Virus record (IMG/VR): IMGVR_UViG_2657245588_000004
DNA: 37,702 nt
Direction: 5' to 3' (one strand)
DNA from: a virus
Taxonomy: Duplodnaviria; Heunggongvirae; Uroviricota; Caudoviricetes
How positions within the stretch are numbered: the first letter of the stretch is position 1; every line of letters begins with the position of its first letter. Shown here piece after piece: positions 1 to 21,816 of the stretch. The notes beneath the pieces were generated by a model. It saw only the letters and a program-made list of their open reading frames with translations, ran no database searches and was not told the DNA's origin. The translations under genes and the position numbers were made by a program.

Positions 1-1053
1 TTACGGGGTAATGCCAACCGCTGCCGCCACTTTGTCGCCACTTGGCAGCGTTGCCAGAGGATTGAAACGGAGCGCCGTTTCTAGATGATCCGGTGCCAGA
101 TGTGCGTAACGCATAGTCATTTTTATATCGTGGTGTCCGAGAATTTTTTGTAAGGCCAGAATGTTTCCACCCGACATCATGAAGTGCGCCGCAAACGTAT
201 GGCGCAGAACGTGTGTGAGTTGACCGCGAGGGAGCACGATAGACGTTTTTTCCATCACGGATAAAAATTGAAAATAGCAGTCTGTGAAGAAATTGAACCC
301 ATCAAGCGCCATGATCTCTTCGTAAAGCTCTTTACTGATAGGGATGCTTCTGTTTTTCTTCCCCTTCGTTCTGACAAAGGTAATTCGGTATTTGGTCACC
401 TGTGAGCGGGTAAGATTTACGGCTTCACGCCAGCGTGCGCCTGTGCTTAAGCATATCTTAACTACCAGTGCCAGAATTGGGTCCTGACGTTTGCAATCAG
501 CCAGCAATTCAACAATCTGCTCATGGGTAAGCCATGCCATCTCTTTTTCTGCGATGGTGAATTTTCGCATGTTCTCCAGTGGGTTCGGATACGACCATTC
601 GCCCAGACGGGATAGTTCGCTAAAAACACTACTTAGATAGCTTTGCTCCAGGTTAATGGTGACCGGGCTTGCTCCTTTCTTCCATTTCTCGCTGAAGTAG
701 ATCTCGCCTGTCAGGCGTTTATCTCGATAGTGGGCAAACATTTTAGAGGTGAGATCGGTTGCAAGAGGATTGCCCAGAGCGTCAACCATCAACAGCAATT
801 TGTCATAGACATGCTGCCCAGCTGTCAGAGATTTACCATGTAGTTTGAACCATAGCTCAACCACGTCTTTCAGTGTTCGACGATCCACTGATTCACCCAG
901 CCAGGGCTTTGCTTCGGTTTCTTCCATCGTGTGGCGCTCAAAAGCCAGTGCTTCGCCTTTGGTAGCGAATTGTTTACGCACACGACGCCCACTTCGTCCG
1001 GCGGGGTAACATTCGCAAAGCCATTTCCCTGTGGTTAGTTTTCGTACTGCCAT
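1..1053 (-). CDS. int: Phage integrase, tyrosine recombinase (P2/186 Int-like)
   Basis: 350 aa; C-terminal catalytic region with HxxR (LRHTFAAHF) and terminal HDIKMTMRYAHL motif; ATG at 1053. Confidence 0.9.
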   Translation of the reverse strand: MAVRKLTTGKWLCECYPAGRSGRRVRKQFATKGEALAFERHTMEETEAKPWLGESVDRRTLKDVVELWFKLHGKSLTAGQHVYDKLLLMVDALGNPLATDLTSKMFAHYRDKRLTGEIYFSEKWKKGASPVTINLEQSYLSSVFSELSRLGEWSYPNPLENMRKFTIAEKEMAWLTHEQIVELLADCKRQDPILALVVKICLSTGARWREAVNLTRSQVTKYRITFVRTKGKKNRSIPISKELYEEIMALDGFNFFTDCYFQFLSVMEKTSIVLPRGQLTHVLRHTFAAHFMMSGGNILALQKILGHHDIKMTMRYAHLAPDHLETALRFNPLATLPSGDKVAAAVGITP

Positions 1054-1057
1054 AAAA

Positions 1058-1078
1058 AGCCCTCATATCAGAGGGCTA
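1058..1078 (-). other. Hairpin (gccctc/gagggc stem) followed by a U-run on the minus strand, directly abutting the int start codon and containing its GAGGG Shine-Dalgarno
   Basis: Inverted repeat agccctc..gagggct read directly; minus-strand T-run immediately precedes int ATG. Function (terminator vs translational control) is inferred. Confidence 0.35.
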
Positions 1079-1135
1079 AATTTAACTGTATATGTAACCA
1101 GTAATCAATGTGTGATTACTATGAAACATACATTG

Positions 1136-2812
1136 CTAAGCAACATGTAGTTCATCGTTGGCGGAAGTGGCTGCTTTGCGCTCCTGCTCAATAGATAGAG
1201 ACTCTCTATATTCTTTCGCCTCTGCAAACATTGTCCAGTGGGCGTTGATGTTCATGTCTTCAATAACTGATTTGATTTCTTTTAAATTTACGTTAAAAAA
1301 CTCTTTTCGTGAGTTAATTTTATTGACCTGCTTTTCGTTGAAAACTTTATGCAGATGGTTTTCTAATGATGGTGCATCATCACTATAAATCATCGCATGA
1401 ACATCGAACGAAAAAGGAACACTAGCATCTCCGAGTTCACGAACACGATCAAGTGGTTCAAGGCGGCGTGTCATTCCAATTTTATATACATCTTCGCCAA
1501 ATGAACCAATATTACTAATGATATAGACGTGGCCTGATCTGGTTTGTTGAGCCATAGAAATAGCTCGTTGATTTTTAGCTTCAGCTTCTTCATATTTTAA
1601 CTGTAGTTCAGCTATTTTTTGCTCTAAAGCTAAGCGTTGTTCTTCATTTGCAAGCATAAGTTCTTTCGTTGCTTTATTTATAGCTTGCTGAATAGCTTTT
1701 TCTTCTTTTTCAGCTTCTTTTATCGCTTTTTCATATTCTCTACGAGCTCTTTCCTCTTCACGAAGCTGTTCTTTAATCCTTCTTTGCTCTTCTTTTTCTT
1801 CGAGCATAATTTCATTAACTGCTACACCCCATTTTAGCTCGTTGAGTCTTGCCTGAAGATAGATGTCACTTATTTTTGCGGACCTAAAGGCAGAGCCATT
1901 GTAATTTACTAGTTGAAATGCATCTTTTATTTCTTGGGAAAGTTTTCCAAAATTGTTGTGTTTGACTTTTGATAAAATACTGTCAACTCTTCCATTGAAG
2001 GCATCCAAAACAAAGTTTATGGCAGTATTACGCCTGTTTTGCTCAACATAATCACACGAAGCAGCTTTATTAGTTTTTATTAATGATTTGGTTAACTCTC
2101 TGGCTTTTTGTAATTCCTTGCCTGCATCTGTAAATTCATAATTTTCTGCCAGCTCATCAAGTACACTACGGTTAGGGATGATCCATTCATCACCATAACC
2201 TTCAATTTTATTTTTCATTGATTTTGCAACTGCTTCATATTTTTCTGCAAACTCTTTAGCTTCATATGCTGAACCAGCAATCTCCTTTGCTCTTTCTTCT
2301 GCATCAGAAATAATTTTTACTGCATTGTCATTAGCATTTGAGATTAGCTCATTTGCTTTATTATTAGCATTATCAAGACGTTCTTTGGCTTTCAGGCGTG
2401 CATCGCGAGCGTCTTTGGTGATTGCTATAGCTTCGCTATTAGCGTTGCTTATTGTCATCTGAGCTTGATAATTTGCTTCGTTTACTGTTTTAGCCGCCTT
2501 AATTTGGGCTTCATCTATTTTTTGCTTGGCTATTGAGTCCGCATTTTTTATCTTATTCTCTGCATCCATTACTGCGCTGTGCAATTCTTCGTATTGCCAC
2601 AATGGTGCTGCTCGCCCTTCAAGCTCTGATAATTCTCGTACGGTCTGTGCTAGTTTTTCTTGATTTTCAATCAGTTGGTTAGAAAGGGCTATGTTGTTAG
2701 CTGTCAGGTTATCTATAGCCGCTTTGTGTTTTTTACTTTGTTTAAATAATATTACAGCTAGAACAGGGGCGAGAAATGCTAATAAGAGTATAACGATGGC
2801 AAATGAATTCAT
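1136..2812 (-). CDS. Accessory protein: N-terminal TM helix, long coiled-coil, central DUF4041-like region, C-terminal GIY-YIG (T5orf172-type) nuclease-like domain
   Basis: 558 aa; hydrophobic N-terminus MNSFAIVILLLAFLAPVLAVILF; E/K/A-rich heptad-like stretches; C-terminus GHVYIISN..(10)..VYKIGMTRR fits the GIY-x10-YIG pattern; visibly AT-rich versus flanks. Family assignment from memory of motifs, not a search. Confidence 0.7.
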   Translation of the reverse strand: MNSFAIVILLLAFLAPVLAVILFKQSKKHKAAIDNLTANNIALSNQLIENQEKLAQTVRELSELEGRAAPLWQYEELHSAVMDAENKIKNADSIAKQKIDEAQIKAAKTVNEANYQAQMTISNANSEAIAITKDARDARLKAKERLDNANNKANELISNANDNAVKIISDAEERAKEIAGSAYEAKEFAEKYEAVAKSMKNKIEGYGDEWIIPNRSVLDELAENYEFTDAGKELQKARELTKSLIKTNKAASCDYVEQNRRNTAINFVLDAFNGRVDSILSKVKHNNFGKLSQEIKDAFQLVNYNGSAFRSAKISDIYLQARLNELKWGVAVNEIMLEEKEEQRRIKEQLREEERARREYEKAIKEAEKEEKAIQQAINKATKELMLANEEQRLALEQKIAELQLKYEEAEAKNQRAISMAQQTRSGHVYIISNIGSFGEDVYKIGMTRRLEPLDRVRELGDASVPFSFDVHAMIYSDDAPSLENHLHKVFNEKQVNKINSRKEFFNVNLKEIKSVIEDMNINAHWTMFAEAKEYRESLSIEQERKAATSANDELHVA

Positions 2813-2832
2813 TTTAAAATCCTTTTACTATA

Positions 2833-3429
2833 TTAATTCGAGACTATTGTACTTCTTATACAAGCAACCACTTCAATATCAGAAAATGCACATTCAAAGC
2901 TATTCTCTGCTGTTGTAATTTTAATCATTCCTTTAGGAAGCCTTGTGATTTTTCGAATGGAATAGGTTCCGTCGATATTGATTAACCAGTTTCCATCAAG
3001 TACTTCAGAAAATTTTTGATCACAAATGTATGTGACGAGTCCATCCTGAACAACAATTGGTGATGAAAGGTTTGCAGGAAGAAATGATGAATCGAAGACA
3101 TATGAACCGTCTTCAATCATTTTGCCTGCGGCAAGGCGAAACTTAACAAGCTCTTCTGTAGCTGCTGTCAGCGAGCTTTGCTTAAGGCCTTGTCCGGTAG
3201 TTAACCATTTGAGGGAGGTTCCTGTTTCAAGAGCACATTGGATTATCCAGTCAGCAGGAAATGTATCCCGCAAATACCTGTTCGCTAGTGTGCTTTTTGA
3301 TACTTCCAAGTGATCAGCTAAAGCCTGTCGTGTCGTAAAGCCATAGGCTTCGACTAATCGCTCAATCGCAGCCTTACCACCTTTATTGGGATTTATTTTG
3401 ATCTCACTTGGGTACTTTGATGTTGACAT
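2833..3429 (-). CDS. cI: CI-like lysogeny repressor (186-type, N-terminal HTH)
   Basis: 198 aa; HTH-like segment FTTRQALADHLEVSKSTLANRY; position between int and divergent Apl/CII genes. Confidence 0.75.
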   Translation of the reverse strand: MSTSKYPSEIKINPNKGGKAAIERLVEAYGFTTRQALADHLEVSKSTLANRYLRDTFPADWIIQCALETGTSLKWLTTGQGLKQSSLTAATEELVKFRLAAGKMIEDGSYVFDSSFLPANLSSPIVVQDGLVTYICDQKFSEVLDGNWLINIDGTYSIRKITRLPKGMIKITTAENSFECAFSDIEVVACIRSTIVSN

Positions 3430-3451
3430 ATCTCTTTTGCGATCCTAGTAT
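3423..3451 (+). promoter_or_regulatory. Candidate rightward early promoter (-35 TTGACA 3423-3428, -10 TAGTAT 3446-3451, 17-bp spacer)
   Basis: Hexamers read directly from sequence; assignment as pR-like is inference. Confidence 0.4.
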
Positions 3452-3458
3452 CAGTTTT

Positions 3459-3474
3459 GTACCCAATTGGGTAC
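3459..3474. promoter_or_regulatory. Perfect 16-bp palindrome GTACCCAATTGGGTAC, candidate repressor operator; extra TTGGGTAC half-site copy at 3408-3415
   Basis: Palindrome read directly; lies just downstream of the candidate -10 in the cI/apl divergent region. Confidence 0.45.
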
Positions 3475-3525
3475 TTGTCACGATTACTACAGGCTCACCA
3501 CAAGCCAATAGGAGATGTTGCATCA

Positions 3526-3746
3526 TGACCCCTAACATTTCAATAACTCTGAATACGCCACACGTCACAATCGAGCGTTATAGCGAACTTACTGGTCTTT
3601 CAATCGACACAATCAACGATATGTTGGCGGATGGTCGCATTCCTCGGCATCGTCTTCGTAAAGACAAGAAAAGAGAAAAGGTAATGATCAACCTTGCTGC
3701 TCTTACCGTTGATGCACTTACTGATTGCAATGTTGTATTCAACTAG
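3526..3746 (+). CDS. Apl/Cox-like small HTH excisionase/regulator
   Basis: 73 aa from ATG 3526 with upstream AGGAG; HTH-like [22 protein letters not shown]; first gene of the rightward operon. ORF-track start 3408 is upstream of a plausible RBS. Confidence 0.55.
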
Positions 3747-3778
3747 TTCCATTTTGGGATACATCAGAGGTGTCGACC

Positions 3779-4288
3779 ATGTTTGATTACCAAGTTTCCA
3801 AACATCCACATTTTGATGAAGCCTGTCGTGCATTCGCACTGCGCCACAATCTGGTGCAACTGGCAGAACGTGCGGGCATGAATGTGCAGATTCTGCGGAA
3901 CAAGCTGAACCCAGCTCAACCTCATTTATTAACCGCACCAGAAATCTGGCTGCTTACCGATCTGACTGAAGATTCAACGTTGGTAGATGGTTTTCTGGCA
4001 CAGATTCATTGTCTGCCATGTGTACCGATTAATGAGGTAGCAAAAGAGAAACTGCCGCATTACGTCATGAGCGCAACTGCAGAGATCGGGCGTGTTGCAG
4101 CAGGTGCGGTATCTGGTGATGTAAAAACTAGTGCCGGTCGTCGTGATGCTATCAGCAGCATTAACTCTGTAACACGACTGATGGCGCTGGCTGCTGTTTC
4201 ATTGCAAGCCCGTTTACAGGCTAATCCTGCGATGGCGAGTGCAGTTGATACCATGACTGGCCTTGGTGCTTCATTCGGTTTGCTGTGA
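3779..4288 (+). CDS. cII: CII-like lysogeny establishment regulator (186 CII-like)
   Basis: 169 aa from ATG 3779 ([19 protein letters not shown]...); length and position fit 186 CII; similarity is recalled from memory. Confidence 0.7.
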
Positions 4289-4295
4289 GGTGTTT

Positions 4296-4592
4296 ATGCT
4301 GACGAAAGAACCATCATTTGCATCGCTGCTGGTAAAACAAAGCCCGGCAATGCACTACGGTCACGGCTGGATCACGGGTGAGGATGGAAAACGCTGGCAT
4401 CCATGTCATTCACAAGATGAATTGCTGTCTGAATTGACCACGAGGAAACGGAGAAAGTCCAAATGTATGCGGCAGAAAGTGAAGTGGTTTATCAGTTTCG
4501 TTACAGAGGGGAGAGTTATTCAGTACCTGAAGATGATTTGCTCTGTTGCTATCCGTCATTGTCGGGCGATGGCAGTTACTTTTTCACGTTAA
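4296..4592 (+). CDS. Hypothetical small early protein (overlaps next ORF in another frame)
   Basis: ATG 4296 with GAGG upstream; overlaps cII stop; basic C-terminus. One of this and the 4463 ORF may be spurious. Confidence 0.3.
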   Translation: MLTKEPSFASLLVKQSPAMHYGHGWITGEDGKRWHPCHSQDELLSELTTRKRRKSKCMRQKVKWFISFVTEGRVIQYLKMICSVAIRHCRAMAVTFSR

Positions 4593-4687
4593 AGGATGGG
4601 ACGTTTTTACGGGGAGAGCAGGTTAAAGAGACGATACGAAAAAATGTATCTCCTCTTGAGCGTTACCGTAAGAACAAAGAACGATAG
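4463..4687 (+). CDS. Hypothetical small early protein
   Basis: 74 aa; ATG 4463 preceded by GGAG at about 9 nt. Confidence 0.35.
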   Translation: MYAAESEVVYQFRYRGESYSVPEDDLLCCYPSLSGDGSYFFTLKDGTFLRGEQVKETIRKNVSPLERYRKNKER

Positions 4688-4709
4688 CTGCGTTTGGGGG
4701 ATATGAAGT

Positions 4710-5051
4710 ATGGCAATTAATGGCGCTGCAGCAACTGTTCCATTAAGCCCCGGTGAACGCCTGAATGGACTTAATCACATTGCGGAGTTAAGGGCGAAAG
4801 TTTTTGGCCTGAATATTGAGTCAGAGCTTGAGCGGTTTATTAAAGATATGCGTGATCCACGGGATATCAATAATGAACAAAATAAACGGGCACTGGCTGC
4901 CATATTCTTTATGGCAAAAATTCCAGCTGAACGTCATAGCATCAGCATTAATGAGCTGACCACTGACGAAAAGCGGGAGCTGATTAAAGCAATGAATCAT
5001 TTTCGTGCAGTGGTGAGCTTATTTCCCAGACGGCTAACCATGCCGAATTAA
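4710..5051 (+). CDS. Hypothetical early protein
   Basis: 113 aa; ATG 4710; no recognisable motif. Confidence 0.5.
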   Translation: MAINGAAATVPLSPGERLNGLNHIAELRAKVFGLNIESELERFIKDMRDPRDINNEQNKRALAAIFFMAKIPAERHSISINELTTDEKRELIKAMNHFRAVVSLFPRRLTMPN

Positions 5052-5118
5052 CCAACTAATGAAATTAATGGCGTAAACCCGCCGGGCATCCCTTTATCTA
5101 AATTCAGGAGAATTGATT

Positions 5119-5352
5119 ATGCGTAATATTGAAACCCTCACGACTAAAACCGGACCGGATGACGCAGGGCTTAATATTTTACTGACAGAGGCTCGTCTGG
5201 AAGAACGCCGGGCAAGGGCTGAAGCAATGGCTGCTCGCCTTGATAGCCTGGCGTGTCATATCTCATCCCGCCAGCTAAACCACGTGGAAGCGGCAGAACT
5301 GCTGCGCGTGACTGCTGAAGCAATCCAGAACGAAGCGCAGGAGATCCACTAA
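5119..5352 (+). CDS. Hypothetical early protein
   Basis: ATG 5119 preceded by AGGAG (5106-5110); track start 5113 is TTG. Confidence 0.5.
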   Translation: MRNIETLTTKTGPDDAGLNILLTEARLEERRARAEAMAARLDSLACHISSRQLNHVEAAELLRVTAEAIQNEAQEIH

Positions 5353-5579
5353 TGGCTGATGCAATGGATCTCGTACAGCAGCGCGTTGAAGAAGAACGCC
5401 AGCGCCATATCCGTGCAGCCCGTGCCAAATCACCGGGCGTGTCACGCGTACTTTGCATTGAATGTGAAGCGCCAATTCCGCCAGCACGACGCCGCGCCAT
5501 TCCGGGAGTGCAGCTTTGCATTACCTGTCAGGAAATCGCAGAACTGAAAGGCAAACATTACAACGGAGGTGCTGTATGA
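5352..5579 (+). CDS. TraR/DksA-family C4 zinc-finger protein
   Basis: 75 aa; CIECEAPIPP...(~20 aa)...CITCQE four-cysteine pattern; stop overlaps Dam start (ATGA). Confidence 0.7.
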   Translation: MADAMDLVQQRVEEERQRHIRAARAKSPGVSRVLCIECEAPIPPARRRAIPGVQLCITCQEIAELKGKHYNGGAV

Positions 5580-6433
5580 GCACTATCCTGAAATGGGCGG
5601 GAAATAAAACCGCCATTATGCCAGAACTGAAAAAATACCTTCCTGCTGGCCCGCGACTGGTTGAACCTTTCGCGGGTTCCTGTGCTGTGATGATGGAAAC
5701 GGATTATCCCAGCTATCTGGTTGCGGATATTAATCCTGATTTAATCAACCTCTATAAAAAGGTTGCCGCTGATTGTGAATCGTTTATATCTCGCGCCAGA
5801 GTTTTATTTGAGATCGCAAACAGGGAGGTGGCTTATTACAACATAAGGCAGGAGTTTAACTGCTCAACTGAAATTACTGATTTCATGAAAGCGGTATATT
5901 TCCTGTATCTCAATCGTCACGGTTACCGTGGTTTATGTCGCTATAACAAGAGCGGGCATTTCAACATTCCCTACGGTAATTATAAAAATCCGTATTTCCC
6001 TGAAAAAGAACTTCGCACATTTGCAGAAAAAGCCCAGCGAGCAACGTTTATCTGCGCCAGCTTTGATGAAACGCTGGCGATGTTGAAGGCGGGAGATGTG
6101 GTGTATTGCGATCCGCCATATGACGGTACGTTTTCCGGCTATCACACTGATGGTTTCACTGAAGATGACCAGTATCACCTGGCATCCGTTCTTGAACATC
6201 GGTCATCAGAAGGACATCCGGTCATTGTTTCTAACAGTGACACATCCCTGATCCGTTCGCTGTATCGCAATTTTACTCACCACTATATCAAGGTAAAACG
6301 CAGCATCGGTGTGGCAGCTGGCGAGGGTAAATCAGCAACAGAAATCATTGCTGTTTCCGGGCCGCGCTGCTGGATGGGATTTGATTATTCGCGTGGCGTG
6401 GATAGTTCTGCCGTGTACGGAGTACGTGCATGA
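5576..6433 (+). CDS. dam: DNA adenine methyltransferase (Dam-like, N6-A MTase)
   Basis: 285 aa from ATG 5576 with GGAGG upstream; N-terminal LKWAGNK and catalytic DPPY motif (CDPPYDGT). Confidence 0.85.
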
Positions 6434-8841
6434 GTCATGCCGATATGAACAAGTGCTGCGGCTTTAACGAGGCTGCCGCAGCATTCTCATGGAACAGCCC
6501 GAAAAAGGCCATTAACCCTTATCTGGACCCGGCGGAAGTTGCGCCGGTTTCTACGCTTTCAAACCTGATCACTCTGTACGCTGCCGATAACGAGCAGGAA
6601 CAGTTGCGCCGCGAGGCACTGAGTGATCAGGTCTGGGAGCGTTATTTCTTTAATGAATCACGTGATCCTGTCCAGCGCGAAATGGAGCAGGATAAGCTCA
6701 TTAGCCGGGCAAAGCTGGCGCATGAGCAGCAGCGTTTTAATTCAGACATGGTCATTCTGGCGGACGTCAACGCCCAGCCTTCCAATATCAGCAAGCCGCT
6801 GATGCAACGTATTGAATACTTCAGCAGCCTGGGCAGGCCAAAGGCTTATTCCCGCTATTTACGTGAGACGATTAAGCCATGTCTGGAACGACTGGAGCAT
6901 GTACGCGACAGTCAGCTATCTGCATCTTTTCGCTTTATGGCAAGCCATGAAGGGCTGGACGGCCTGCTGATCCTGCCTGAAATGAGTCAGGATCAGGTGA
7001 AACGCCTGTCCACCCTGGTAGCTGCGCATATGAGTATGTGCCTTGATGCAGCTTGTGGTGATTTGTATGCCACCGATGACGTTAAGCCAGAAGAAATCCG
7101 CAAGACATGGGAAAAGGTGGCAGCGGAAACCCTGCGTCTGGATGTCATCCCACCTGCGTTTGAGCAACTCCGTCGGAAAAGAAACCGCCGTAAACCCGTG
7201 CCCTATGAACTCATTCCGGGTTCGCTGGCGCGTATGTTGTGCGCCGACTGGTGGTATCGGAAATTATGGAAGATGCGTTGCGAATGGCGGGAAGAGCAGT
7301 TGCGCGCTGTTTGCCTGGTCAGCAAAAAAGCATCTCCTTATGTCAGCTATGAAGCCGTGATGCATAAACGTGAGCAGCGCCGTAAGTCGCTGGAGTTTTT
7401 CCGTTCTCATGAACTGGTGAACGAAGACGGCGACACGCTGGACATGGAGGATGTGGTAAACGCCAGCAGCAGCAACCCTGCGCATCGCCGCAATGAGATG
7501 ATGGCCTGTGTTAAAGGTCTGGAGCTTATCGCGGAAATGCGCGGTGACTGCGCCGTTTTCTACACTATCACCTGTCCGTCGCGTTTCCATTCCACGCTAA
7601 ATAACGGCAGACCAAACCCGACCTGGACAAACGCGACGGTAAGACAAAGCAGCGATTATCTGGTCGGCATGTTTGCTGCATTTCGTAAGGCGATGCACAA
7701 AGCCGGGTTGCGCTGGTATGGCGTGCGGGTGGCTGAGCCGCATCATGATGGCACAGTTCACTGGCACCTGTTGTGTTTCATGCGCAAAAAAGACCGCCGT
7801 GCCATCACTGCATTACTGCGTAAGTTTGCCATCCGTGAAGACCGCGAGGAGCTGGGCAATAACACTGGGCCGCGCTTTAAGTCTGAGTTGATTAACCCGC
7901 GCAAAGGAACGCCGACAAGCTACATCGCGAAATATATCAGTAAGAACATTGACGGTCGTGGTCTGGCTGGCGAGATCAGCAAGGAAACGGGTAAATCTCT
8001 GCGTGATAACGCTGAATACGTGAATGCCTGGGCGTCTCTGCATCGTGTTCAGCAATTCCGCTTCTTTGGTATTCCGGGGCGTCAGGCTTACCGTGAACTT
8101 CGCTTGCTGGCTGGTCAGGCGGCAAGGCAACAGGGTGACAAAAAAGCAGGTGCGCCGGTACTGGATAACCCGCGTCTTGATGCCATTCTGGCTGCTGCTG
8201 ATGCTGGTTGTTTTGCCACCTACATCATGAAGCAGGGCGGCGTACTGGTTCCCCGTAAATATCACCTCATCAGAACCGCTTATGAAATCAACGAAGAGCC
8301 GACCGCCTATGGCGATCACGGCATTCGTATTTATGGCATCTGGTCACCCATTGCAGAGGGCAAGATCTGCACTCATGCAGTGAAGTGGAAAATGGTTCGT
8401 AAAGCCGTTGACGTTCAGGAGGCGGCAGCCCAGGGCGCTTGCGCCCCTTGGACTCGTGGCAATAACTGTCCCCTTGCTGAAAATTTGAACCAACAGGAGA
8501 AAGATAAATCAGCTGATGGGGACCCCAGAACGGACATTACCAGCATGGATGACAAGGAGTTGCACGATTACCTGCACAGTATGAACAAAAAAGAGCGCCG
8601 GGAACTGGCTGCAAGGTTACGCCTGGTGAAACCGAAACGGCGTAAAGACTACAAACAGCGAATTACAGACCATCAGCGACTGCAGCTCGTGTATGAGCTG
8701 AAGTCCAGAGGATTTGATGGCAGCGAGAAAGAGGTCGATTTACTCCTTCGCGGAGGCAGTATTCCGTCAGGAGCAGGCCTGCGTATCTTCTATCGGAACC
8801 AGCGTTTGCAAGAAGATGATCAGTGGCGGAACCTGTATTAA
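6430..8841 (+). CDS. A: Replication initiation endonuclease (P2 gpA-like, rolling-circle HUH)
   Basis: 803 aa; HUH-like VHWHLL and tyrosine motif YIAKYISK; position after early operon. Confidence 0.85.
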
Positions 8842-8933
8842 TTACGCGGGTTAACAATTCGTGCTCTTTATAATACCAGGCATATCAGGCTGATGAACGT
8901 AAAAAAACGTTTTACATCAGTAAGATTATTATA

Positions 8934-8953
8934 TACTGTAAATATAAACAGTG
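8934..8953. promoter_or_regulatory. LexA (SOS) box TACTGTAAATATAAACAGTG
   Basis: CTGT-N8-ACAG read directly, 17 of 20 matches to the E. coli consensus TACTGTATATATATACAGTA; about 40 bp upstream of the next ORF. Confidence 0.6.
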
Positions 8954-8994
8954 GTTATGCGTACAGTATTGCGTGTGGTGTCATAGGAGGAAAG

Positions 8995-9183
8995 ATGCAG
9001 GACTATTTTTTGGAGTCTTTGAAGCTCCAGCGCATTGATTTTTTTCTTAAGCTTGTAGCGGCTAGTGAGTGTAGTGATGAAGAGAAGGGGCTGGCTCTGC
9101 AGTGGGTTTCTGAATTGACTGATGAACTCATGGCAAAAATCAGAACCCACGAATACAACCGCTCAATGGATGTCATCAGCTGA
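8995..9183 (+). CDS. Small SOS-module protein, possible Tum-like antirepressor N-terminal part
   Basis: 62 aa from ATG 8995 with AGGAGG upstream, downstream of the LexA box; function inferred from position only. Confidence 0.4.
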   Translation: MQDYFLESLKLQRIDFFLKLVAASECSDEEKGLALQWVSELTDELMAKIRTHEYNRSMDVIS

Positions 9184-9193
9184 GGTGACTTTT

Positions 9194-9427
9194 ATGCGCA
9201 TTGAAATAATGATCGATAAAGAGCAGAAGATTAGCCAGTCTACCCTGGACGCCCTTGAATCCGAGCTTTACCGCAATCTGCGCCCCCTGTATCCCAAAAC
9301 GGTAATTCGCATTCGCAAAGGTAGCTCTAACGGTGTGGAACTAACCGGACTGCAACTGGACGAAGAAAGAAAACAAGTGATGAAAATTATGCAGAAGGTG
9401 TGGGAAGACGACAGCTGGCTGCATTAA
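9194..9427 (+). CDS. DinI-family protein
   Basis: 77 aa; MRIEIMIDKEQ...IRKGSSNGVELTG...WEDDSWL resembles DinI (recalled); GAGGTGA RBS. Confidence 0.65.
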   Translation: MRIEIMIDKEQKISQSTLDALESELYRNLRPLYPKTVIRIRKGSSNGVELTGLQLDEERKQVMKIMQKVWEDDSWLH

Positions 9428-9562
9428 GAAACGTTGCTGGCGTCTGAACTTGCTTCTGGCGTCAGCAAGGTTGAACAACGAGCCCTTGCGAGGCGTTAGC
9501 TCTGTAGTGCATGTCTATGCCGCATGAGATCGCATGATCGTTTGAGGATCGTTTTTGCTAAG

Positions 9563-9587
9563 GCCCGCCAGAACTGGCGGGCTTTTG
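9563..9587 (+). terminator. Rho-independent terminator (gcccgccagaactggcgggc + TTTT)
   Basis: GC-rich inverted repeat followed by T-run, read directly. Confidence 0.5.
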
Positions 9588-9631
9588 CGTAGATCATGCA
9601 GGTGCATGAAAACCACTACATAAAGCGGGCA

Positions 9632-9650
9632 GGCGTGGCGGGGATACGAG
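9632..9650. other. Candidate cos cohesive-end sequence GGCGTGGCGGGGATACGAG
   Basis: First 13 nt match my recollection of the 186/P2 19-nt cohesive end (GGCGTGGCGGGGAAAGCAT for 186); recalled, not verified. Confidence 0.35.
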
Positions 9651-9736
9651 CGCGCGCAACTTGAGATAGTGTGATACTTATCTGAGAAATCTTAACAAGG
9701 TTCAATACAATACCCTTTCAAAAAAAGGGGAGTGTG

Positions 9737-10888
9737 ATGTTTGTAAAAAATAACTTTAATACAAATAATTTCGATGCGGAATTAGTTGAAGCGATTGGTA
9801 ATAGGCTGGAAAACAACCAATTTTCGGATGCAATACTTGCAGGAACCAAATATCTAACAACTTTGCTGCGTGAAAAAGGGCAATGTGAAGGGGATGGGGC
9901 TCAGCTTGTTGGTACTGTTTTGGGTGGACAATCACCTAGAATCCAAATTAATAGTCTTCAATCTGTATCAGAGCAGGACGAACAGCGCGGATTTGAAGCA
10001 CTATTAAGAGGCTACTATCAGTGTATAAGAAATCCAAGGACACATGACAATTTCCCTGATACAGAAGATTCCTGCATGAGAATATTGATCATGTTGGATA
10101 CTTTTATTAAGTATTTAAAAAGAGATGTTGCTGAGTTCGATTACACAGCAATTCTTGAAAGAATTTATGAGGTTCACTTTGTAAATAATTCTGATTATGC
10201 AGAAGCTTTAATATCACAAATTCCAGAAAAAAAACTACTAGATTTTTTCCAAAGTTTAATTTCTCGCTTTAATGAAAGGCCAACCAAGGAAATTGATTCT
10301 ATATTCAAAGCAATAAACCAACGCTTTTCAGGAGAGGAAGAAAAAGCCGCAATGCGGTTGCTAGGTGATGAGTTACGCAAGGCTAGCAATAATGTTGAGT
10401 TTGCTAATGTATTTAGAATAATTAAGCCGAGCGCATGGAGAAATCTTCCTGATGATGTTTTAATTAGAATGGAAAATATAATCATCGAAGAGTGCAAAAA
10501 AGGATATTTGGATTTCTATTCTGATGCGACCAAAGGAGCTATAGGAACATGGGGTAATACATTTGGTAGCAAATTTAAAAGAAGAGGTGATCTTGGTGAT
10601 GCTTTAATTGGATTGTTATATGATAGTTGGTATACGCAAAATTATGTTGCGAAATATTACGTTTTTTCAATCCCTTCTATCATTACTGATGATGTGAAAG
10701 TTAAGGAGTTAGCTGATGCTTTAGCTTATGCCACCATTGTAAATGGTGCTAAGCTTTTACGAACAAAATTGATTGATGCATGTAAAAATTATCCTGATAA
10801 GTTGAAAGAGCATCTTAGGGATGCTGTTCAGCAACGGATGGATAGTGATAAAAAATATGCGGAAGAATTATTAGGTCAAATAAGCTGA
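9737..10888 (+). CDS. Accessory protein with N-terminal HEPN-like region (Rx4H motif, TIGR02391/Ymh-like)
   Basis: 383 aa from ATG 9737 (track start 9734 is GTG); GGGGAG RBS; motif CIRNPRTHDNF (R-x4-H); visibly AT-rich; lies between candidate cos and portal gene. Confidence 0.65.
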   Translation: MFVKNNFNTNNFDAELVEAIGNRLENNQFSDAILAGTKYLTTLLREKGQCEGDGAQLVGTVLGGQSPRIQINSLQSVSEQDEQRGFEALLRGYYQCIRNPRTHDNFPDTEDSCMRILIMLDTFIKYLKRDVAEFDYTAILERIYEVHFVNNSDYAEALISQIPEKKLLDFFQSLISRFNERPTKEIDSIFKAINQRFSGEEEKAAMRLLGDELRKASNNVEFANVFRIIKPSAWRNLPDDVLIRMENIIIEECKKGYLDFYSDATKGAIGTWGNTFGSKFKRRGDLGDALIGLLYDSWYTQNYVAKYYVFSIPSIITDDVKVKELADALAYATIVNGAKLLRTKLIDACKNYPDKLKEHLRDAVQQRMDSDKKYAEELLGQIS

Positions 10889-10939
10889 TTATTATTTGCA
10901 CCTAATCTCACTTTCGATGTTAGGTGCATTTCTATATGC

Positions 10940-11974
10940 CTAATCTAATTCATATGAGGTAAATTTAACCAGTTCTTCATTAAGTCCAATCCATGAGTTA
11001 ATTTCAGATATTCTGTGTTGTAGCGGAATTAACTCATTCCTGACAAAAACCTTACTAGCCTTTTCAACATCCCCAAACCCGCCAACATTACTAGGCATAA
11101 TCCCCATCATCTGCGGCGGTACACGGTGCGCTGCCATCATGTCATCCCGGCTCACGTTCTTGATGTTAAGAAACTCATCTTTTGCCGCCACCTCTGACAG
11201 CGGGATGATCTGAATCCCGTCTTTCTTTCCGTTGGGTGAGTACATAAACAAGTTGCGGAAGTTGCCCGGCCCTTTGGCGCTTTTCATCGCATTGCGGAGG
11301 TTGTTCACATCCTCCTGGTTCTGCGCGGCATCGGTCATGTACATGATGAAGCCTGCATGACTACCGTTAATGTAATATTTGCGGCGGAACAGCGTGGCGG
11401 ACTCGTTGAGCAAAGCGGATGGGATGGCAGAAAGATAGCCGGGCAGGCCGTAGATCTCCTGATTAATATCTGGTTCCATCAGATGAAAAATGCTGCCTTT
11501 CGTGAACTGATATGGCTGGGTTGTCATACCGTATTGCACAAACCAGTAGGTATCCAGGTCTAACCCGCGTCGGGTATATTTTGCCAGGGCAGGCTCAAGG
11601 GCGATAACTTCACCGAAGCGGTTCGTGCGTTTCTCCAGGTAGGCGTTACCAAATACCAGGTAGTCCTGCACAAAACGTGAAAAAGCCTGCTGGCTGAGCA
11701 GCGGGTGAGGGATATAGGTACTGGTCAGAATGTTGCACTTTACTGCAATCGGGGAACTGTGATGCACGGCAGCGCGGAAGGTGCGCGCCAGTCCGTCAAA
11801 GCTGACGGGCGGCTCATACCAACGGTCCATCTGTACGCATTCCACATAATCCAGCAGTTCTCGGCGGTCCAGAACAGGAACGGGATCGCCGAAGCTGAAT
11901 GCTTCGGCTGTAGTTTGACTTTTAAGCTGGATCTGTTTCGTCGCCGCAGCGCGGTTCTTCTTACTCTTTCCCAT
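10940..11974 (-). CDS. Q: Portal protein (P2 gpQ-like)
   Basis: 344 aa from ATG 11974 (track start 11977 is TTG); start overlaps terminase stop; leftward Q-P pair. Confidence 0.85.
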   Translation of the reverse strand: MGKSKKNRAAATKQIQLKSQTTAEAFSFGDPVPVLDRRELLDYVECVQMDRWYEPPVSFDGLARTFRAAVHHSSPIAVKCNILTSTYIPHPLLSQQAFSRFVQDYLVFGNAYLEKRTNRFGEVIALEPALAKYTRRGLDLDTYWFVQYGMTTQPYQFTKGSIFHLMEPDINQEIYGLPGYLSAIPSALLNESATLFRRKYYINGSHAGFIMYMTDAAQNQEDVNNLRNAMKSAKGPGNFRNLFMYSPNGKKDGIQIIPLSEVAAKDEFLNIKNVSRDDMMAAHRVPPQMMGIMPSNVGGFGDVEKASKVFVRNELIPLQHRISEINSWIGLNEELVKFTSYELD

Positions 11975-13740
11975 CAAAAAATCTCCACAATATTGCTGGT
12001 ATTGGCGGATTCGCCCTGCAGCGGTTCGTTAAACAGTGCGTGCATTGTTGCCCAGGCCAGATCGGCATGGCTGGCTTCTTCGCTGCGGCTGGCTTCATAG
12101 GTTGGGCGGTTGCCGCTGGCGGTGGTGGCGCGACGGATTGCCATAAATGACTGCGCTATGTCGGTGTGTCCGGCGTCAAACTCCAGACGACGGTGACTGA
12201 TAATGTCGTAGGCCTTGAGTACCAGGGCGTTTTTAACGTTGGGGTTGTAGACAAACTCCCGGACGGCTGGAAAAAACGCTTTCACGTTCTCGTAAACCCC
12301 GTGGCCGACACCTGTCGAGTCGATGCCGATGTAGGTCACGTTGTACTGTTCGGTCAGTTTTTTGATGGCGTCAGCCTGGGCGCGAAAGTCCATTCCGCGC
12401 CACTGGTGACGCTCAAGAATGCGGAACTTGCCGCCCGGCACGGCTGGCGGTGCCACCACCACGCATCCGGCGCTGTCGCCATTCTGCGTACCTTTCGCCG
12501 GGTCATAACCGATCCATACTTCGCGCCAGCCAAACGGGCGCAGGGCCAGTGCATGAAAGTCAGTCCAGACTTCCCAGCTGTCTACCATGCACGCCTGCAG
12601 CTCGCTGAGCGGGAACACGGACGCGAGATCGTCCACAAACTCGCACATCAGCAGGTTCTGGTATTCGTCCGGGCTGTACTCCATGCGCAACTGGTCAAGG
12701 TCGAACAGGTTACAGCCGCCGCGCACCGCATCTTCCACGGTGACTATCTGGCGGTATTGCCCGTCTGCGCACAGCAGGCCGGGGGCCAGATTGCTGTGGG
12801 ACAGGTCGATGTCCACCTTATCGGCTTTGTTGCGCCCACGGTTGAACAGCGCACCGGACCAGAACGGATAAGCACTGTGTGTCAGGCTGGATGGCGTGGA
12901 AAAATAGGTTTGTCGCCATTTTTTGTGAATAGCCATACCGGAAGCCACTTTGCGCAGCTCCTGGAATTTCGGTATCCAGAAATATTCATCCAGATACAGG
13001 TTGCCGTGGTAACTCTGGGCCGTGCGGGCATTGGTGCCGAGGAAGTAAAGCGTGGCCCCGTTGGGAAGCACCATCGGATCGCCTTTCAGCTCCACCTCCA
13101 CTTCTTTGGCGAAGTCGATGATGTACTGCTTAAAGACGTGGGCCTGTGCCTTACTGGCAGAAAGGAAAATCTGGTTACGTCCGGTAAGCAGGGCGTCAAT
13201 CAGGGCTTCACGGGCAAAATAGAAGGTCGCGCCGATCTGGCGTGACTTCAGCAGGTTGCGGATGCGGTTGGTTTTTCCGGCTTCCCACCAGTGGCGCTGG
13301 TAGTTGAACATGGAGGAATGGAAAATTTCTTCCAGCTTCTCAATCTGTTCATCGGTGAAAACATTCTTTTCAGGCTGACGGCGTGGGCCTTTGTTGCGGT
13401 TGGCGACGTTAGGGTTTAAGTCAGCTTCGTTGCCGCCATTGTTAAACTTGCCGATCCGCGCGTGGCGCTCCGACTGGCGCGCCAGCAGGTCAATCTCTTT
13501 GAAATCTTTCCCTTCTTTGTGCTCCTTCATGATGAGCTGGCAGTAGCGTGCGGCGGTGGTGAGCTGCATCTGATCCAGCGGCCCATAGTCACCCCACTTG
13601 TCGCGTTTTTTCCAGCTGTGAACGGTTGCAACTTTCTCGCCCAGCATTTCAGCAATGCGGGCTACGCGGTATCCCTGAAAGTACAGCAGCATGGCCTGCC
13701 GACGGGGATCGAGATCTGCGGGTGTCAGTGTGGTGTTCAT
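11974..13740 (-). CDS. P: Terminase large subunit / ATPase (P2 gpP-like)
   Basis: 588 aa; size and position divergent from the capsid operon; assignment by P2 synteny. Confidence 0.85.
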   Translation of the reverse strand: MNTTLTPADLDPRRQAMLLYFQGYRVARIAEMLGEKVATVHSWKKRDKWGDYGPLDQMQLTTAARYCQLIMKEHKEGKDFKEIDLLARQSERHARIGKFNNGGNEADLNPNVANRNKGPRRQPEKNVFTDEQIEKLEEIFHSSMFNYQRHWWEAGKTNRIRNLLKSRQIGATFYFAREALIDALLTGRNQIFLSASKAQAHVFKQYIIDFAKEVEVELKGDPMVLPNGATLYFLGTNARTAQSYHGNLYLDEYFWIPKFQELRKVASGMAIHKKWRQTYFSTPSSLTHSAYPFWSGALFNRGRNKADKVDIDLSHSNLAPGLLCADGQYRQIVTVEDAVRGGCNLFDLDQLRMEYSPDEYQNLLMCEFVDDLASVFPLSELQACMVDSWEVWTDFHALALRPFGWREVWIGYDPAKGTQNGDSAGCVVVAPPAVPGGKFRILERHQWRGMDFRAQADAIKKLTEQYNVTYIGIDSTGVGHGVYENVKAFFPAVREFVYNPNVKNALVLKAYDIISHRRLEFDAGHTDIAQSFMAIRRATTASGNRPTYEASRSEEASHADLAWATMHALFNEPLQGESANTSNIVEIF

Positions 13741-19712: not shown

Positions 19713-20564
19713 TTATTTCATTTCGTGTGGCATATTTATGGCTTTAATTTTTTCGTGGTAATGATTAAACTCAATATGAGTATTGGTAAAATTGGATTCA
19801 AATGTATTCATTAAATTGGAATATAATGATTCATATGATAAGGATACTTTTTTTCCATTTTTTTCTGCAGTTGTGCTAATGTACCTATGTACTGCAGAAA
19901 AAAGAAAATGACCTCTAAGCCACTTTCTGTATTCTATCGATTTTGATTTGAAAGATGAATCGATGTTATCTGGTTCCACACCTAATTTTTCAATGATGGT
20001 GTTTTTGTAACTCGTGATTTTTTGCTCGCAAATTTCATTTGATTTTCTAGATTTCATGAAACGATCTGCACTGTCACCAATAACTGAAATGCCTTTTCTA
20101 TAAATATGATTGTATATATCAAGTTTTATTAGGGGTTCCATTTTGGTATAAAAGTCTTCTGTCCAAGAATCGACGTTGACATCGTTCATTATCTTTTGAG
20201 GTAATTTTCCTAGAGTTTTTATTGCCTTATATATGCCTGTTTTGTCAATAAACGTGTTTTCGATGGAGTGCCCATAAGTTTTTACAATGCGACTATCAGC
20301 GTTTTCCTCATTTTCAAATGTAGTGAAGTCTGCATCACATGCAATTATAATTTGAAGATCTTCATCAGTAACTCTATCAATATATTTTTTTAATTCTTCA
20401 CAGCCGCCAACATCTTTGATTTCAACCTTTAATGAACTAGCTTTATTAAAGATGATTTCCCAAAAGCAAATATCATCTGGGCCTTCAACATAAACCATGG
20501 CTTCAGCTTGGTAAAATAAATTCATTACATTTTCTGCTTCGGCAGAATAATGGAAATCATCCAT
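19713..20564 (-). CDS. Toprim-like (DUF4435/RloB-like) partner of the ATPase; AriB/AbiLii-like
   Basis: About 283 aa from ATG 20564 (alternatives 20594, 20648); N-terminal VYVEGPDDICFWEII then IIACDADF (E..DxD Toprim-like); 8-nt overlap with upstream ATPase stop; AT-rich. Confidence 0.65.
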   Translation of the reverse strand: MDDFHYSAEAENVMNLFYQAEAMVYVEGPDDICFWEIIFNKASSLKVEIKDVGGCEELKKYIDRVTDEDLQIIIACDADFTTFENEENADSRIVKTYGHSIENTFIDKTGIYKAIKTLGKLPQKIMNDVNVDSWTEDFYTKMEPLIKLDIYNHIYRKGISVIGDSADRFMKSRKSNEICEQKITSYKNTIIEKLGVEPDNIDSSFKSKSIEYRKWLRGHFLFSAVHRYISTTAEKNGKKVSLSYESLYSNLMNTFESNFTNTHIEFNHYHEKIKAINMPHEMK

Positions 20565-21816
20565 GAACCAATTTCTCCATATCAAAGATTGCATTTCGAT
20601 ATTTAGAAGCCACTTCTGGTGAATGCGTAGCGGCGATAATTTGCGCATTAGGATTAAGTTGTTTGATTGCAGGTATTATTTTTCGTTGCCATGCAATATG
20701 TAGCGATAATTCTGGTTCATCAGTAAGATAGATGAAAGGTTTGTTTTGCTGTAGCAAAGTTTCAATAAAAAGAATTAATAGCTGTTTTTCACCAGACGAT
20801 AAATTACTATGGCTAATCGGCCCATGCTCGTTTTCTATTACTAGCTCACCGGAGATAAAATTAAATTTTTTATCGGTTATGAACTCATGTAATGTTTCTA
20901 AAAATAGATTTATAGGAAGAAATATGTTTTTTATTTTCTCCTCGGATTTTAAAGACATCTTTATAATTCTTTGCGTCTTTCGTAATGCCTCAAATGATCT
21001 GTAATCTACATTTAAAATATTTCTGTTATTTTTTTCTGCAAGTCGTAATTCTTCAAATGTTTTGGCAATAGATTCAACGTGAAAGTTAATCTTCTTTCTG
21101 ACATCACTATCAAAAGCTCCAAGCTGAGAATATGCAGCTATTAAATTTCTACGTTCTTTTTCTTTATCAAAAGAAAAGTTAAATGTGTCATCGATACCAT
21201 CTTCTTTACTATAAAGAATAGAAGCAAGAACCTCTTTCTGTAATATTGCAGAAACATCACGAGCTCTTTGTGATAAATAAAGTTGATATTTTGTTAGGTT
21301 CTGCAATAATTGTTCTAATCGGTAATCAACAGGGTTGATTAATTTTGAGCCATATTTGTCTCTGATTTCAAAATCTTCACCGCTTCTAAGTCGGTAAACT
21401 GATAGAGAAGATAAAGCAACTAATTTATCTAACTCTAACTTAAGTTTTTCAACGTCTTCCTGATATTTTCTCCTCATATATATAGGTAGTCTACGATCTT
21501 CAAAGGATCTGATAATATATTTCTTTCTAGAAATTGTATATTCAAACGTAGGCAAAGCTTTAGTTATGTCAAATTTACTCACAACTTTTATTGTTTTAGT
21601 TTTGCTTCCTTCTTTTATTTTTATTGTTACATTATCAAAACTATTCTCATTTAGTGATTCGAGTTCTAATGCCAGAACTGAGTGAAGAATATTCATAAAG
21701 GTTGTTTTACCGGTCCCATTTCGACCAATAATAATATTTACATCTTCATTAAATGAACATGATGCATTTAGTCTTCCCCAAAAACCTTCAATCTTGACAC
21801 TAGATAATCTAAACAT
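20557..21816 (-). CDS. ABC-type ATPase (AAA_15/21-like), AriA/AbiLi/OLD-N-terminal-like
   Basis: 419 aa; Walker A GRNGTGKTT, signature-like LSSGEKQ, Walker B FIYLTDEPELSLH, H-loop ATHSPE; AAGGA RBS. Confidence 0.8.
   Translation of the reverse strand: MFRLSSVKIEGFWGRLNASCSFNEDVNIIIGRNGTGKTTFMNILHSVLALELESLNENSFDNVTIKIKEGSKTKTIKVVSKFDITKALPTFEYTISRKKYIIRSFEDRRLPIYMRRKYQEDVEKLKLELDKLVALSSLSVYRLRSGEDFEIRDKYGSKLINPVDYRLEQLLQNLTKYQLYLSQRARDVSAILQKEVLASILYSKEDGIDDTFNFSFDKEKERRNLIAAYSQLGAFDSDVRKKINFHVESIAKTFEELRLAEKNNRNILNVDYRSFEALRKTQRIIKMSLKSEEKIKNIFLPINLFLETLHEFITDKKFNFISGELVIENEHGPISHSNLSSGEKQLLILFIETLLQQNKPFIYLTDEPELSLHIAWQRKIIPAIKQLNPNAQIIAATHSPEVASKYRNAIFDMEKLVHG

Follow-up and report, generated by a model that had tools for sequence, protein, structure and literature searches.

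A HEPN–α-solenoid gene carried as accessory cargo beside the cos site of a P2-like Escherichia coli prophage: a candidate single-chain defence protein

The window analysed here, the whole 37,702-nucleotide stretch of IMG/VR record IMGVR_UViG_2657245588_000004, is a P2/186-like (Peduoviridae) prophage of Escherichia coli, and the gene in question lies between its cohesive-end (cos) site and its portal gene Q. This gene, an open reading frame (ORF) of 383 amino acids on the plus strand (9737..10888), encodes a HEPN domain followed by a predicted C-terminal α-solenoid, and its product is identical to RefSeq WP_000497736.1, a 'TIGR02391 family protein'. The start codon is the ATG at 9737, with an in-frame GTG also present at 9734, and a Shine-Dalgarno sequence, GGGGAG, was read from the sequence 4 nucleotides before the ATG (9727..9732, plus strand). 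The G+C content is 0.33 over positions 10001-11000, compared with 0.49-0.59 in genes Q, P and A nearby (flanks about 0.55). These features agree with an initial annotation, made from the letters and translations alone, which had described an AT-rich ORF of this length with its own ribosome-binding site. Dozens of E. coli chromosomes, and also phage vB_EcoM-813R9, carry a 2.2-kb stretch around the gene with 100% identity, and the encoded protein is 100% identical in Klebsiella phage Kp4865-2; the gene is intact in both of these deposited phage records.

The borders of the locus were defined by comparison with P2 and 186. The cos site (9632..9650, no strand assigned) consists of GGCGTGGCGGGGATACGAG and then the conserved CGCGCGC, and it aligns with the annotated 19-nucleotide cosL (positions 1-19) of P2 (NC_001895) and 186 (NC_001317); the candidate cos of the initial annotation is thus real. 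The first 13 nucleotides of the site occur once in the window, against 0.03 occurrences expected. A search of the window with the P2 cos 19-mer, allowing up to three mismatches, gave no match, and cos is established by the alignment to the left ends of P2 and 186. Between cos and the stop codon of Q/W there are 168 bp in P2 and 177 bp in 186, holding a terminator only, versus 1290 bp in the window (9650 to 10940), which confirms that the ORF occupies a normally short gap. Homology with other P2-like prophages ends about 7-10 bp past cos (roughly 9657-9660) and restarts near the 3' end of Q; the HEPN–solenoid gene is therefore a discrete insert. By megablast, homology to most other P2-like prophages restarts 60-120 bp inside the 3' end of Q (10998-11061), and the final portal codons may move together with the cassette or may just be less conserved.

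On the right, the insert is bordered by Q itself (10940..11977, minus strand), with terminase gene P beyond it, and both are convergent with the HEPN–solenoid gene. A stem-loop with a 10-bp stem (GCACCTAATC/GATGTTAGGTGC region; 10897..10928, no strand assigned) lies between the two convergent genes; its RNA folds at -16.6 kcal/mol (z -4.3), and none of 200 shuffles was as stable. Terminators tQ/tW occupy the equivalent position in P2 and 186, and the stem-loop is a probable bidirectional terminator. On the left, replication gene A (6430-8841, plus strand) is followed by a 62-amino-acid hypothetical gene and a 77-amino-acid DinI-like gene (8995..9427, plus strand; mapped from the RefSeq annotation and phage record ON470620), which form the left border and are kept in many P2-like prophages with differing cargo. 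The DinI-like gene presumably recalls the SOS-linked Tum region of phage 186.

The N-terminal 125 amino acids are a bona fide Ymh-family HEPN domain. Residues 11-125 (9767..10111, plus strand) match PF09509 (Hypoth_Ymh) with an E-value of 2.9e-23 and 82.5 bits against a cut-off of 25, over profile positions 2-117 of 119, and the TIGR02391 model matches with E 1.2e-11 and 44.8 bits against a cut-off of 39.45; the family was assigned on profile scores above the curated cut-offs of Pfam and NCBIfam. The initial annotation had placed the TIGR02391/Ymh family in the HEPN superfamily and had proposed a profile search as a check. That placement is supported: both profiles score above threshold, and Anantharaman et al. 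(2013, PMC3710099) count Ymh (PF09509) among the HEPN families, give it a conserved Rx4-6H motif and describe it from restriction-modification and abortive-infection (Abi) contexts. The same annotation had pointed to an R-N-P-R-T-H motif in a helical N-terminal region. This predicted catalytic Rx4H motif occupies residues R98 to H103 (codons 10028..10045, plus strand), in a helical region of the structural model, and it is not a chance occurrence because the region that contains it passes the curated cut-offs of both PF09509 and TIGR02391.

Conservation and fold point the same way. R98, N99, R101 and H103 are invariant in all 32 full-length homologues compared (35-92% identity), and most of the 87 HEPN-type cluster representatives described below show RN[PT]RxH at this position. 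The predicted model (predicted local distance difference test, pLDDT, 91) has the α-helical up-and-down bundle of a HEPN domain at its N terminus, and this part matches the HEPN structures 2hsb and 3o10, so that the structure prediction called for by the initial annotation also came out on the side of HEPN. Sequence searches of the PDB, with the single protein and with a profile of the 32 homologues, gave no meaningful match (best E 0.7-0.8). The domain is predicted to be a metal-independent endoribonuclease that uses R98 and H103. Mean pairwise identity is 63-68% in the HEPN domain and 52% in the solenoid; the greater conservation of the HEPN half is as expected for an effector joined to a sensor.

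Residues 131-383 (10127..10885, plus strand) are predicted to form an all-helical HEAT/ARM-like solenoid with a single β-hairpin (residues 257-266), modelled at pLDDT 89-98 over residues ~131-383. No Pfam, NCBIfam, PADLOC or PHROG model covers this region; PHROGs gave an insignificant match only (E 0.0027, function not known), and Foldseek searches of the PDB and of viral BFVD returned nothing at E ≤ 0.001, only generic repeat proteins. The conserved residues of the solenoid are P163, W234, R244, E246, G256 and the motif 'WYTQNY' at 298-303. An exhaustive phmmer search with the C-terminal domain alone, run against 1.84 billion cluster representatives at E ≤ 1e-3, revealed 293 clusters that carry the domain. 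Among the best 150 of these, 87 representatives have it fused to a Ymh HEPN domain, 28 to an N-terminal Ser/Thr kinase and one to a CHAT (caspase-like) protease, the remainder being mostly short fragments. A profile search with the C-terminal alignment in a word-indexed protein database added only two further kinase fusions. When the HEPN, kinase and CHAT fusions were aligned, P163, W234, R244, E246 and G256 were invariant and WY(T/S)QNY was largely intact.

Because it is combined with at least three different effector enzymes, the C-terminal region is a portable module, and it appears to behave as one that serves in recognition or regulation. This module, which HEPN proteins, kinases and one CHAT protease have in common, seems to be new to the literature. 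The initial annotation had recognized no motif in this part of the protein and had raised the prospect of a novel sensor domain; that it is a distinct and previously unrecognized domain is upheld by its absence from the model libraries and by its recurrence in kinase and CHAT fusions.

In the kinase-fused relatives, similarity to PD-T4-6 models is confined to the N-lobe and catalytic loop of the kinase (E down to 1e-49). They resemble the PD-T4-6 Ser/Thr kinases in the kinase alone, a part that the window protein lacks, and no PADLOC model, PD-T4-6 included, matches the solenoid. Contigs of the kinase-fused representatives were mostly too short for gene context. In one 60-kb viral contig from IMG/VR, a kinase–solenoid gene directly follows a cI/LexA-like repressor gene (4414-8417 of that contig); its other neighbour encodes a 498-amino-acid protein whose Walker-A motif reads GKKGSGKT, and this neighbour may be another defence gene in an accessory-gene ('moron') slot of the prophage immunity region. 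In Pseudomonas azerbaijanoccidentalis, a kinase-fused relative adjoins a DUF4145 (HEPN) protein (6932-7531 there).

The distribution of the gene was surveyed in 5426 complete E. coli genomes, 1280 of which match some part of a cos-to-Q query. The HEPN–solenoid gene was found in 51 of these 1280, about 1% of all the genomes surveyed (51/5426), and it is absent from about 96% of the matching genomes as well as from P2 and 186. Elsewhere the same spot between cos and Q holds other cargo, for example a DUF4145 (HEPN) protein together with an HNH endonuclease, or else a P-loop NTPase (nucleoside triphosphatase). Occupancy is thus variable, which the initial annotation had suggested checking among related prophages. 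It had also named what would speak against its proposal, namely a lack of HEPN-fold similarity together with presence of the gene in all related phages in an assigned morphogenetic role; HEPN similarity was found, and presence in only 51 of 1280 matching genomes argues that the gene has no conserved morphogenetic role. A role in morphogenesis was rejected on this distribution. The DUF4145 protein, a member of another HEPN family, was seen in the cos-Q slot of E. coli 2020N21-246 (3652-4350 there).

Outside E. coli, full-length homologues occur in Klebsiella, Vibrio, Aeromonas, Marinomonas, Sulfurovum and Desulfovibrio, and homologues were also found in metagenome-assembled genomes of Acidobacteriota, Bacillota, Latescibacterota and Planctomycetota. 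From Gammaproteobacteria to Campylobacterota the full length of 383 amino acids is kept at 35-55% identity, with the motifs invariant, which indicates purifying selection on a portable function. In Aeromonas dhakensis a lambdoid prophage carries the homologue as a moron, in the neighbourhood of NinB, Rha and Cro. Other homologues lie next to an AAA_15/SMC_N ATPase or a BilD/GIY-YIG/ImmA cluster, and in distant phyla next to Shedu with a serine recombinase, HsdS with a transposase, or an SMC_N/AAA_21 ATPase; those of Bacillota, Latescibacterota and Acidobacteriota stand in non-phage contexts that resemble defence islands. Across the contexts examined (Aeromonas, Sulfurovum, metagenomes and distant phyla) no neighbouring gene is conserved, and we therefore regard the gene as a one-gene system.

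Two further observations were made in these neighbourhoods. Genes of the umuD/umuC type (Peptidase_S24, IMS) lie within a few kb of HEPN- or kinase-solenoid genes in Aeromonas (986-2685), Sulfurovum (2573-3838) and Pseudomonas (8850-10127), and their recurrence probably reflects common mobile-element cargo. One metagenomic homologue (1-7000 of its contig) stands in a run of small, unrelated genes on the same strand, about 100 bp apart and reminiscent of an integron cassette array, including genes for DUF6615, ankyrin, DUF3601, esterase and cupin proteins; a simple repeat search there found no repeated attC-like sequences.

The position of the gene is a known one. The cos-proximal gpA–gpQ region of P2-like phages has been described as an anti-phage hotspot (Rousset et al., 2022, PMC9122126), and this P2 hotspot is also covered in Vassallo et al. 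(2022, PMC9519451) and in PMC13586616. The present gene has the attributes of hotspot cargo, being placed between A and Q next to cos, variable in occupancy and foreign in base composition. Moreover, the identical protein WP_000497736 is entered in Table S5B of PMC9122126 as system 31, 'Hypoth_Ymh', with 118 occurrences and the description 'Putative nuclease', and the system-31 loci in Table S5A include E. coli CFT073. Novelty is in this respect less than the initial annotation had assumed: the protein is a new, uncharacterized member of the HEPN effector class in a known hotspot, locus and protein were both catalogued in 2022, and the novelty is modest. A 'putative HEPN' tested in the same study as pFR103 was considered as the present protein and rejected, since its sequence starts MNDIFVLTREE.

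Two other AT-rich islands of the window encode matches to known defence systems. Near the left end, in an island with a G+C content of 0.35-0.39, a 558-amino-acid protein matches PD-Lambda-1 (1136-2812, minus strand; E 3e-120); the adjoining 198-amino-acid ORF (2833-3429) has no PADLOC match. Inside the tail-gene region, at the second P2 hotspot (the Z/fun position), PARIS AriA (419 amino acids, E 5.7e-40) and AriB (311 amino acids, E 2.8e-24) are encoded at 19713-21816 (minus strand; G+C content about 0.32). Together with the HEPN–solenoid gene, these give three separate candidate defence loci in one prophage.

With the Ymh HEPN family the N-terminal 125 amino acids share profile, Rx4H motif and fold. 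The published Ymh architectures, however, are solo domains or C-terminal HEPN domains fused to paraMORC, AbiJ-NTD1/2 or AbiTii (PMC3710099), whereas here the HEPN domain is N-terminal and is followed by an undescribed α-solenoid of 250 amino acids. The cargo of the P2 gpA–gpQ hotspot, old and tin in P2, shares the locus, the style of an AT-rich single cassette and the variable occupancy; in P2 these two genes are found across cos, towards A, while the HEPN–solenoid gene lies on the Q side. Among PADLOC models, PD-Lambda-3_B (E 2.4e-14) and the Argonaute-associated HEPN (E 2.1e-9) have a Ymh-type HEPN domain in common with the window protein, and the matches extend only over profile positions 139-258 of 270 and 254-348 of 382, respectively. 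In both of these systems the HEPN domain stands at the C terminus and acts alongside a partner gene product, PD-Lambda-3 A in the one and a short prokaryotic Argonaute in the other. Membership of PD-Lambda-3 was rejected, as only the HEPN portion matches and the genes upstream are the 62-amino-acid hypothetical and DinI-like genes, with no component A. Membership of the system with short Argonaute was rejected likewise, there being no Argonaute/APAZ partner in the locus and the match being limited to the HEPN domain. A HEPN-MNT or other HEPN toxin-antitoxin pair was also rejected, the gene standing alone between cos and the convergent Q and its homologues lacking a conserved neighbour.

The closest parallel in logic is with HEPN-TPR of the P4 hotspot and with TPR-sensor Avs/NLR-like proteins, in which a toxic effector is likewise joined to a repeat scaffold and the effector can be swapped. 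The present protein differs from these in that it has no NTPase switch, its repeats appear to be HEAT/ARM-like rather than TPR, its core residues are unusually conserved and its repeat domain belongs to no described family.

The gene, an accessory (moron) cassette of one gene placed in the cos-proximal hotspot, probably encodes a single-chain abortive-infection or other defence protein, in which the HEPN domain would act as the RNase effector and the solenoid would recognize a trigger and control that effector. The two other AT-rich islands of the same prophage, PD-Lambda-1 and PARIS AriA/AriB, speak for this reading. HEPN, kinase and CHAT effectors are typically switched on by induced proximity, and a composite active site formed from two HEPN domains is established for HEPN ribonucleases (RNases) generally. 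That the same solenoid drives kinases and a CHAT protease, which are also proximity-activated enzymes, fits a shared trigger-sensing module. Under such a scheme, a lysogen would make the protein constitutively in an autoinhibited form. Upon superinfection, the solenoid would engage a ligand, either a phage product or a host component altered by the phage, and with the ligand engaged, two HEPN domains could come together and complete a composite active site. By cutting tRNA, rRNA or mRNA, the paired domains would then halt translation and abort the infection. More tentatively, the solenoid may define a new family of single-chain immune sensors that lack an NTPase, in which HEPN, kinase and CHAT effectors are coupled to one conserved ligand through a site formed by W, R, E and 'WYTQNY'; its carriers would be prophages, both P2-like and lambdoid, as well as defence islands in a wide range of phyla.

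Several points weigh against a role in defence. No full-length PADLOC model matches the protein, and no defence phenotype for it was found in the literature searched. A full-text search by family names and identifiers and by accession recovered no functional study of a TIGR02391/Hypoth_Ymh protein. In PMC9122126, WP_000497736 is not among the tested or validated systems, and the HEPN-TPR of the P4 hotspot and the P2 'putative HEPN', both tested (Table S2B), fall outside the validated set (Table S2A). A scan upstream of the gene found as many promoter-like sites as expected from shuffled sequence and none above chance; the best candidate, a weak sigma-70-like CTGAGA-18-TACAAT (9682..9711, plus strand; 9/12 matches), is indistinguishable from a chance occurrence. 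Finally, several solenoid residues are nearly invariant across all of the effector fusions, which is unexpected for a fast-evolving sensor of phage proteins and could reflect either a ligand conserved in the host or an intramolecular role.

The last of these points bears directly on a different explanation, in which the solenoid is a targeting domain rather than a phage sensor and anchors its effector to a cellular RNA or ribonucleoprotein that is itself conserved (the ribosome, a tRNA or a translation factor, for example). One host machine would then be the target of all three versions, HEPN, kinase and CHAT, and regulation would come from the level of expression, from proteolysis or from a phage-induced change in the target. 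The near-invariance of W234, R244, E246 and WYTQNY across the three kinds of fusion suggests one conserved ligand, as this explanation would have it, and a weak Pfam match to PUF_NOP9 (E 0.19) and PUF-like proteins among the fold matches are in keeping with it. However, those fold matches are to generic α-solenoids, none of them significant by Foldseek (E at least 0.05), and an RNase that is always directed to its target would be toxic where, as here, no antitoxin gene is close by. In single-chain defence proteins a non-catalytic repeat domain is usually the sensor of the trigger, and by extension this would hold for the present solenoid too. Taken together, we regard a targeting domain as unlikely.

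An explanation that we hold to be more doubtful still keeps the RNase and changes the benefit to the phage, from exclusion of competitors to lysogenic conversion or host RNA turnover, to prophage addiction, or to conflict between P2 and its satellite P4. The gene adjoins cos, the sole region that P2 has in common with P4 (PMC9122126). In the same survey non-defence cargo, for instance partition systems, was seen in about one quarter of P2 hotspots and a toxin in about 2%, and the lack of a published defence phenotype for the protein would also suit such a benefit. On the other hand, members of the family are found in Aeromonas, in a lambdoid prophage, and also in Bacillota, Latescibacterota and Acidobacteriota, contexts with neither P2 nor P4, and a HEPN domain joined to a repeat domain is a typical defence architecture (PMC3710099). 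A part for the gene in virion structure or DNA packaging, linked to cos and Q, is effectively refuted by its distribution, as is the idea of a functionless remnant in decay, and both are extremely improbable: the position of the gene between cos and the portal gene is the one feature in favour, against which the gene is missing from P2, 186 and about 96% of matching E. coli genomes, is intact in vB_EcoM-813R9 and Kp4865-2, and retains 383 amino acids with invariant motifs at 35-55% identity from Gammaproteobacteria to Campylobacterota.

If the protein is active in defence as we propose, it would provide the first functional handle on the widespread Ymh/TIGR02391 HEPN family, for which no reported activity was found in the literature searched and no solved structure is detectable by sequence; beyond this, it is cargo of the expected type in a hotspot already described. 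It would also represent a compact abortive-infection module, 1.15 kb and one gene in size, present in about 1% of complete E. coli genomes, and one more prophage-borne barrier to be weighed in phage therapy against E. coli and Klebsiella. With a common recognition domain on an RNase, a kinase and a protease, identification of a single ligand would explain three kinds of effector.

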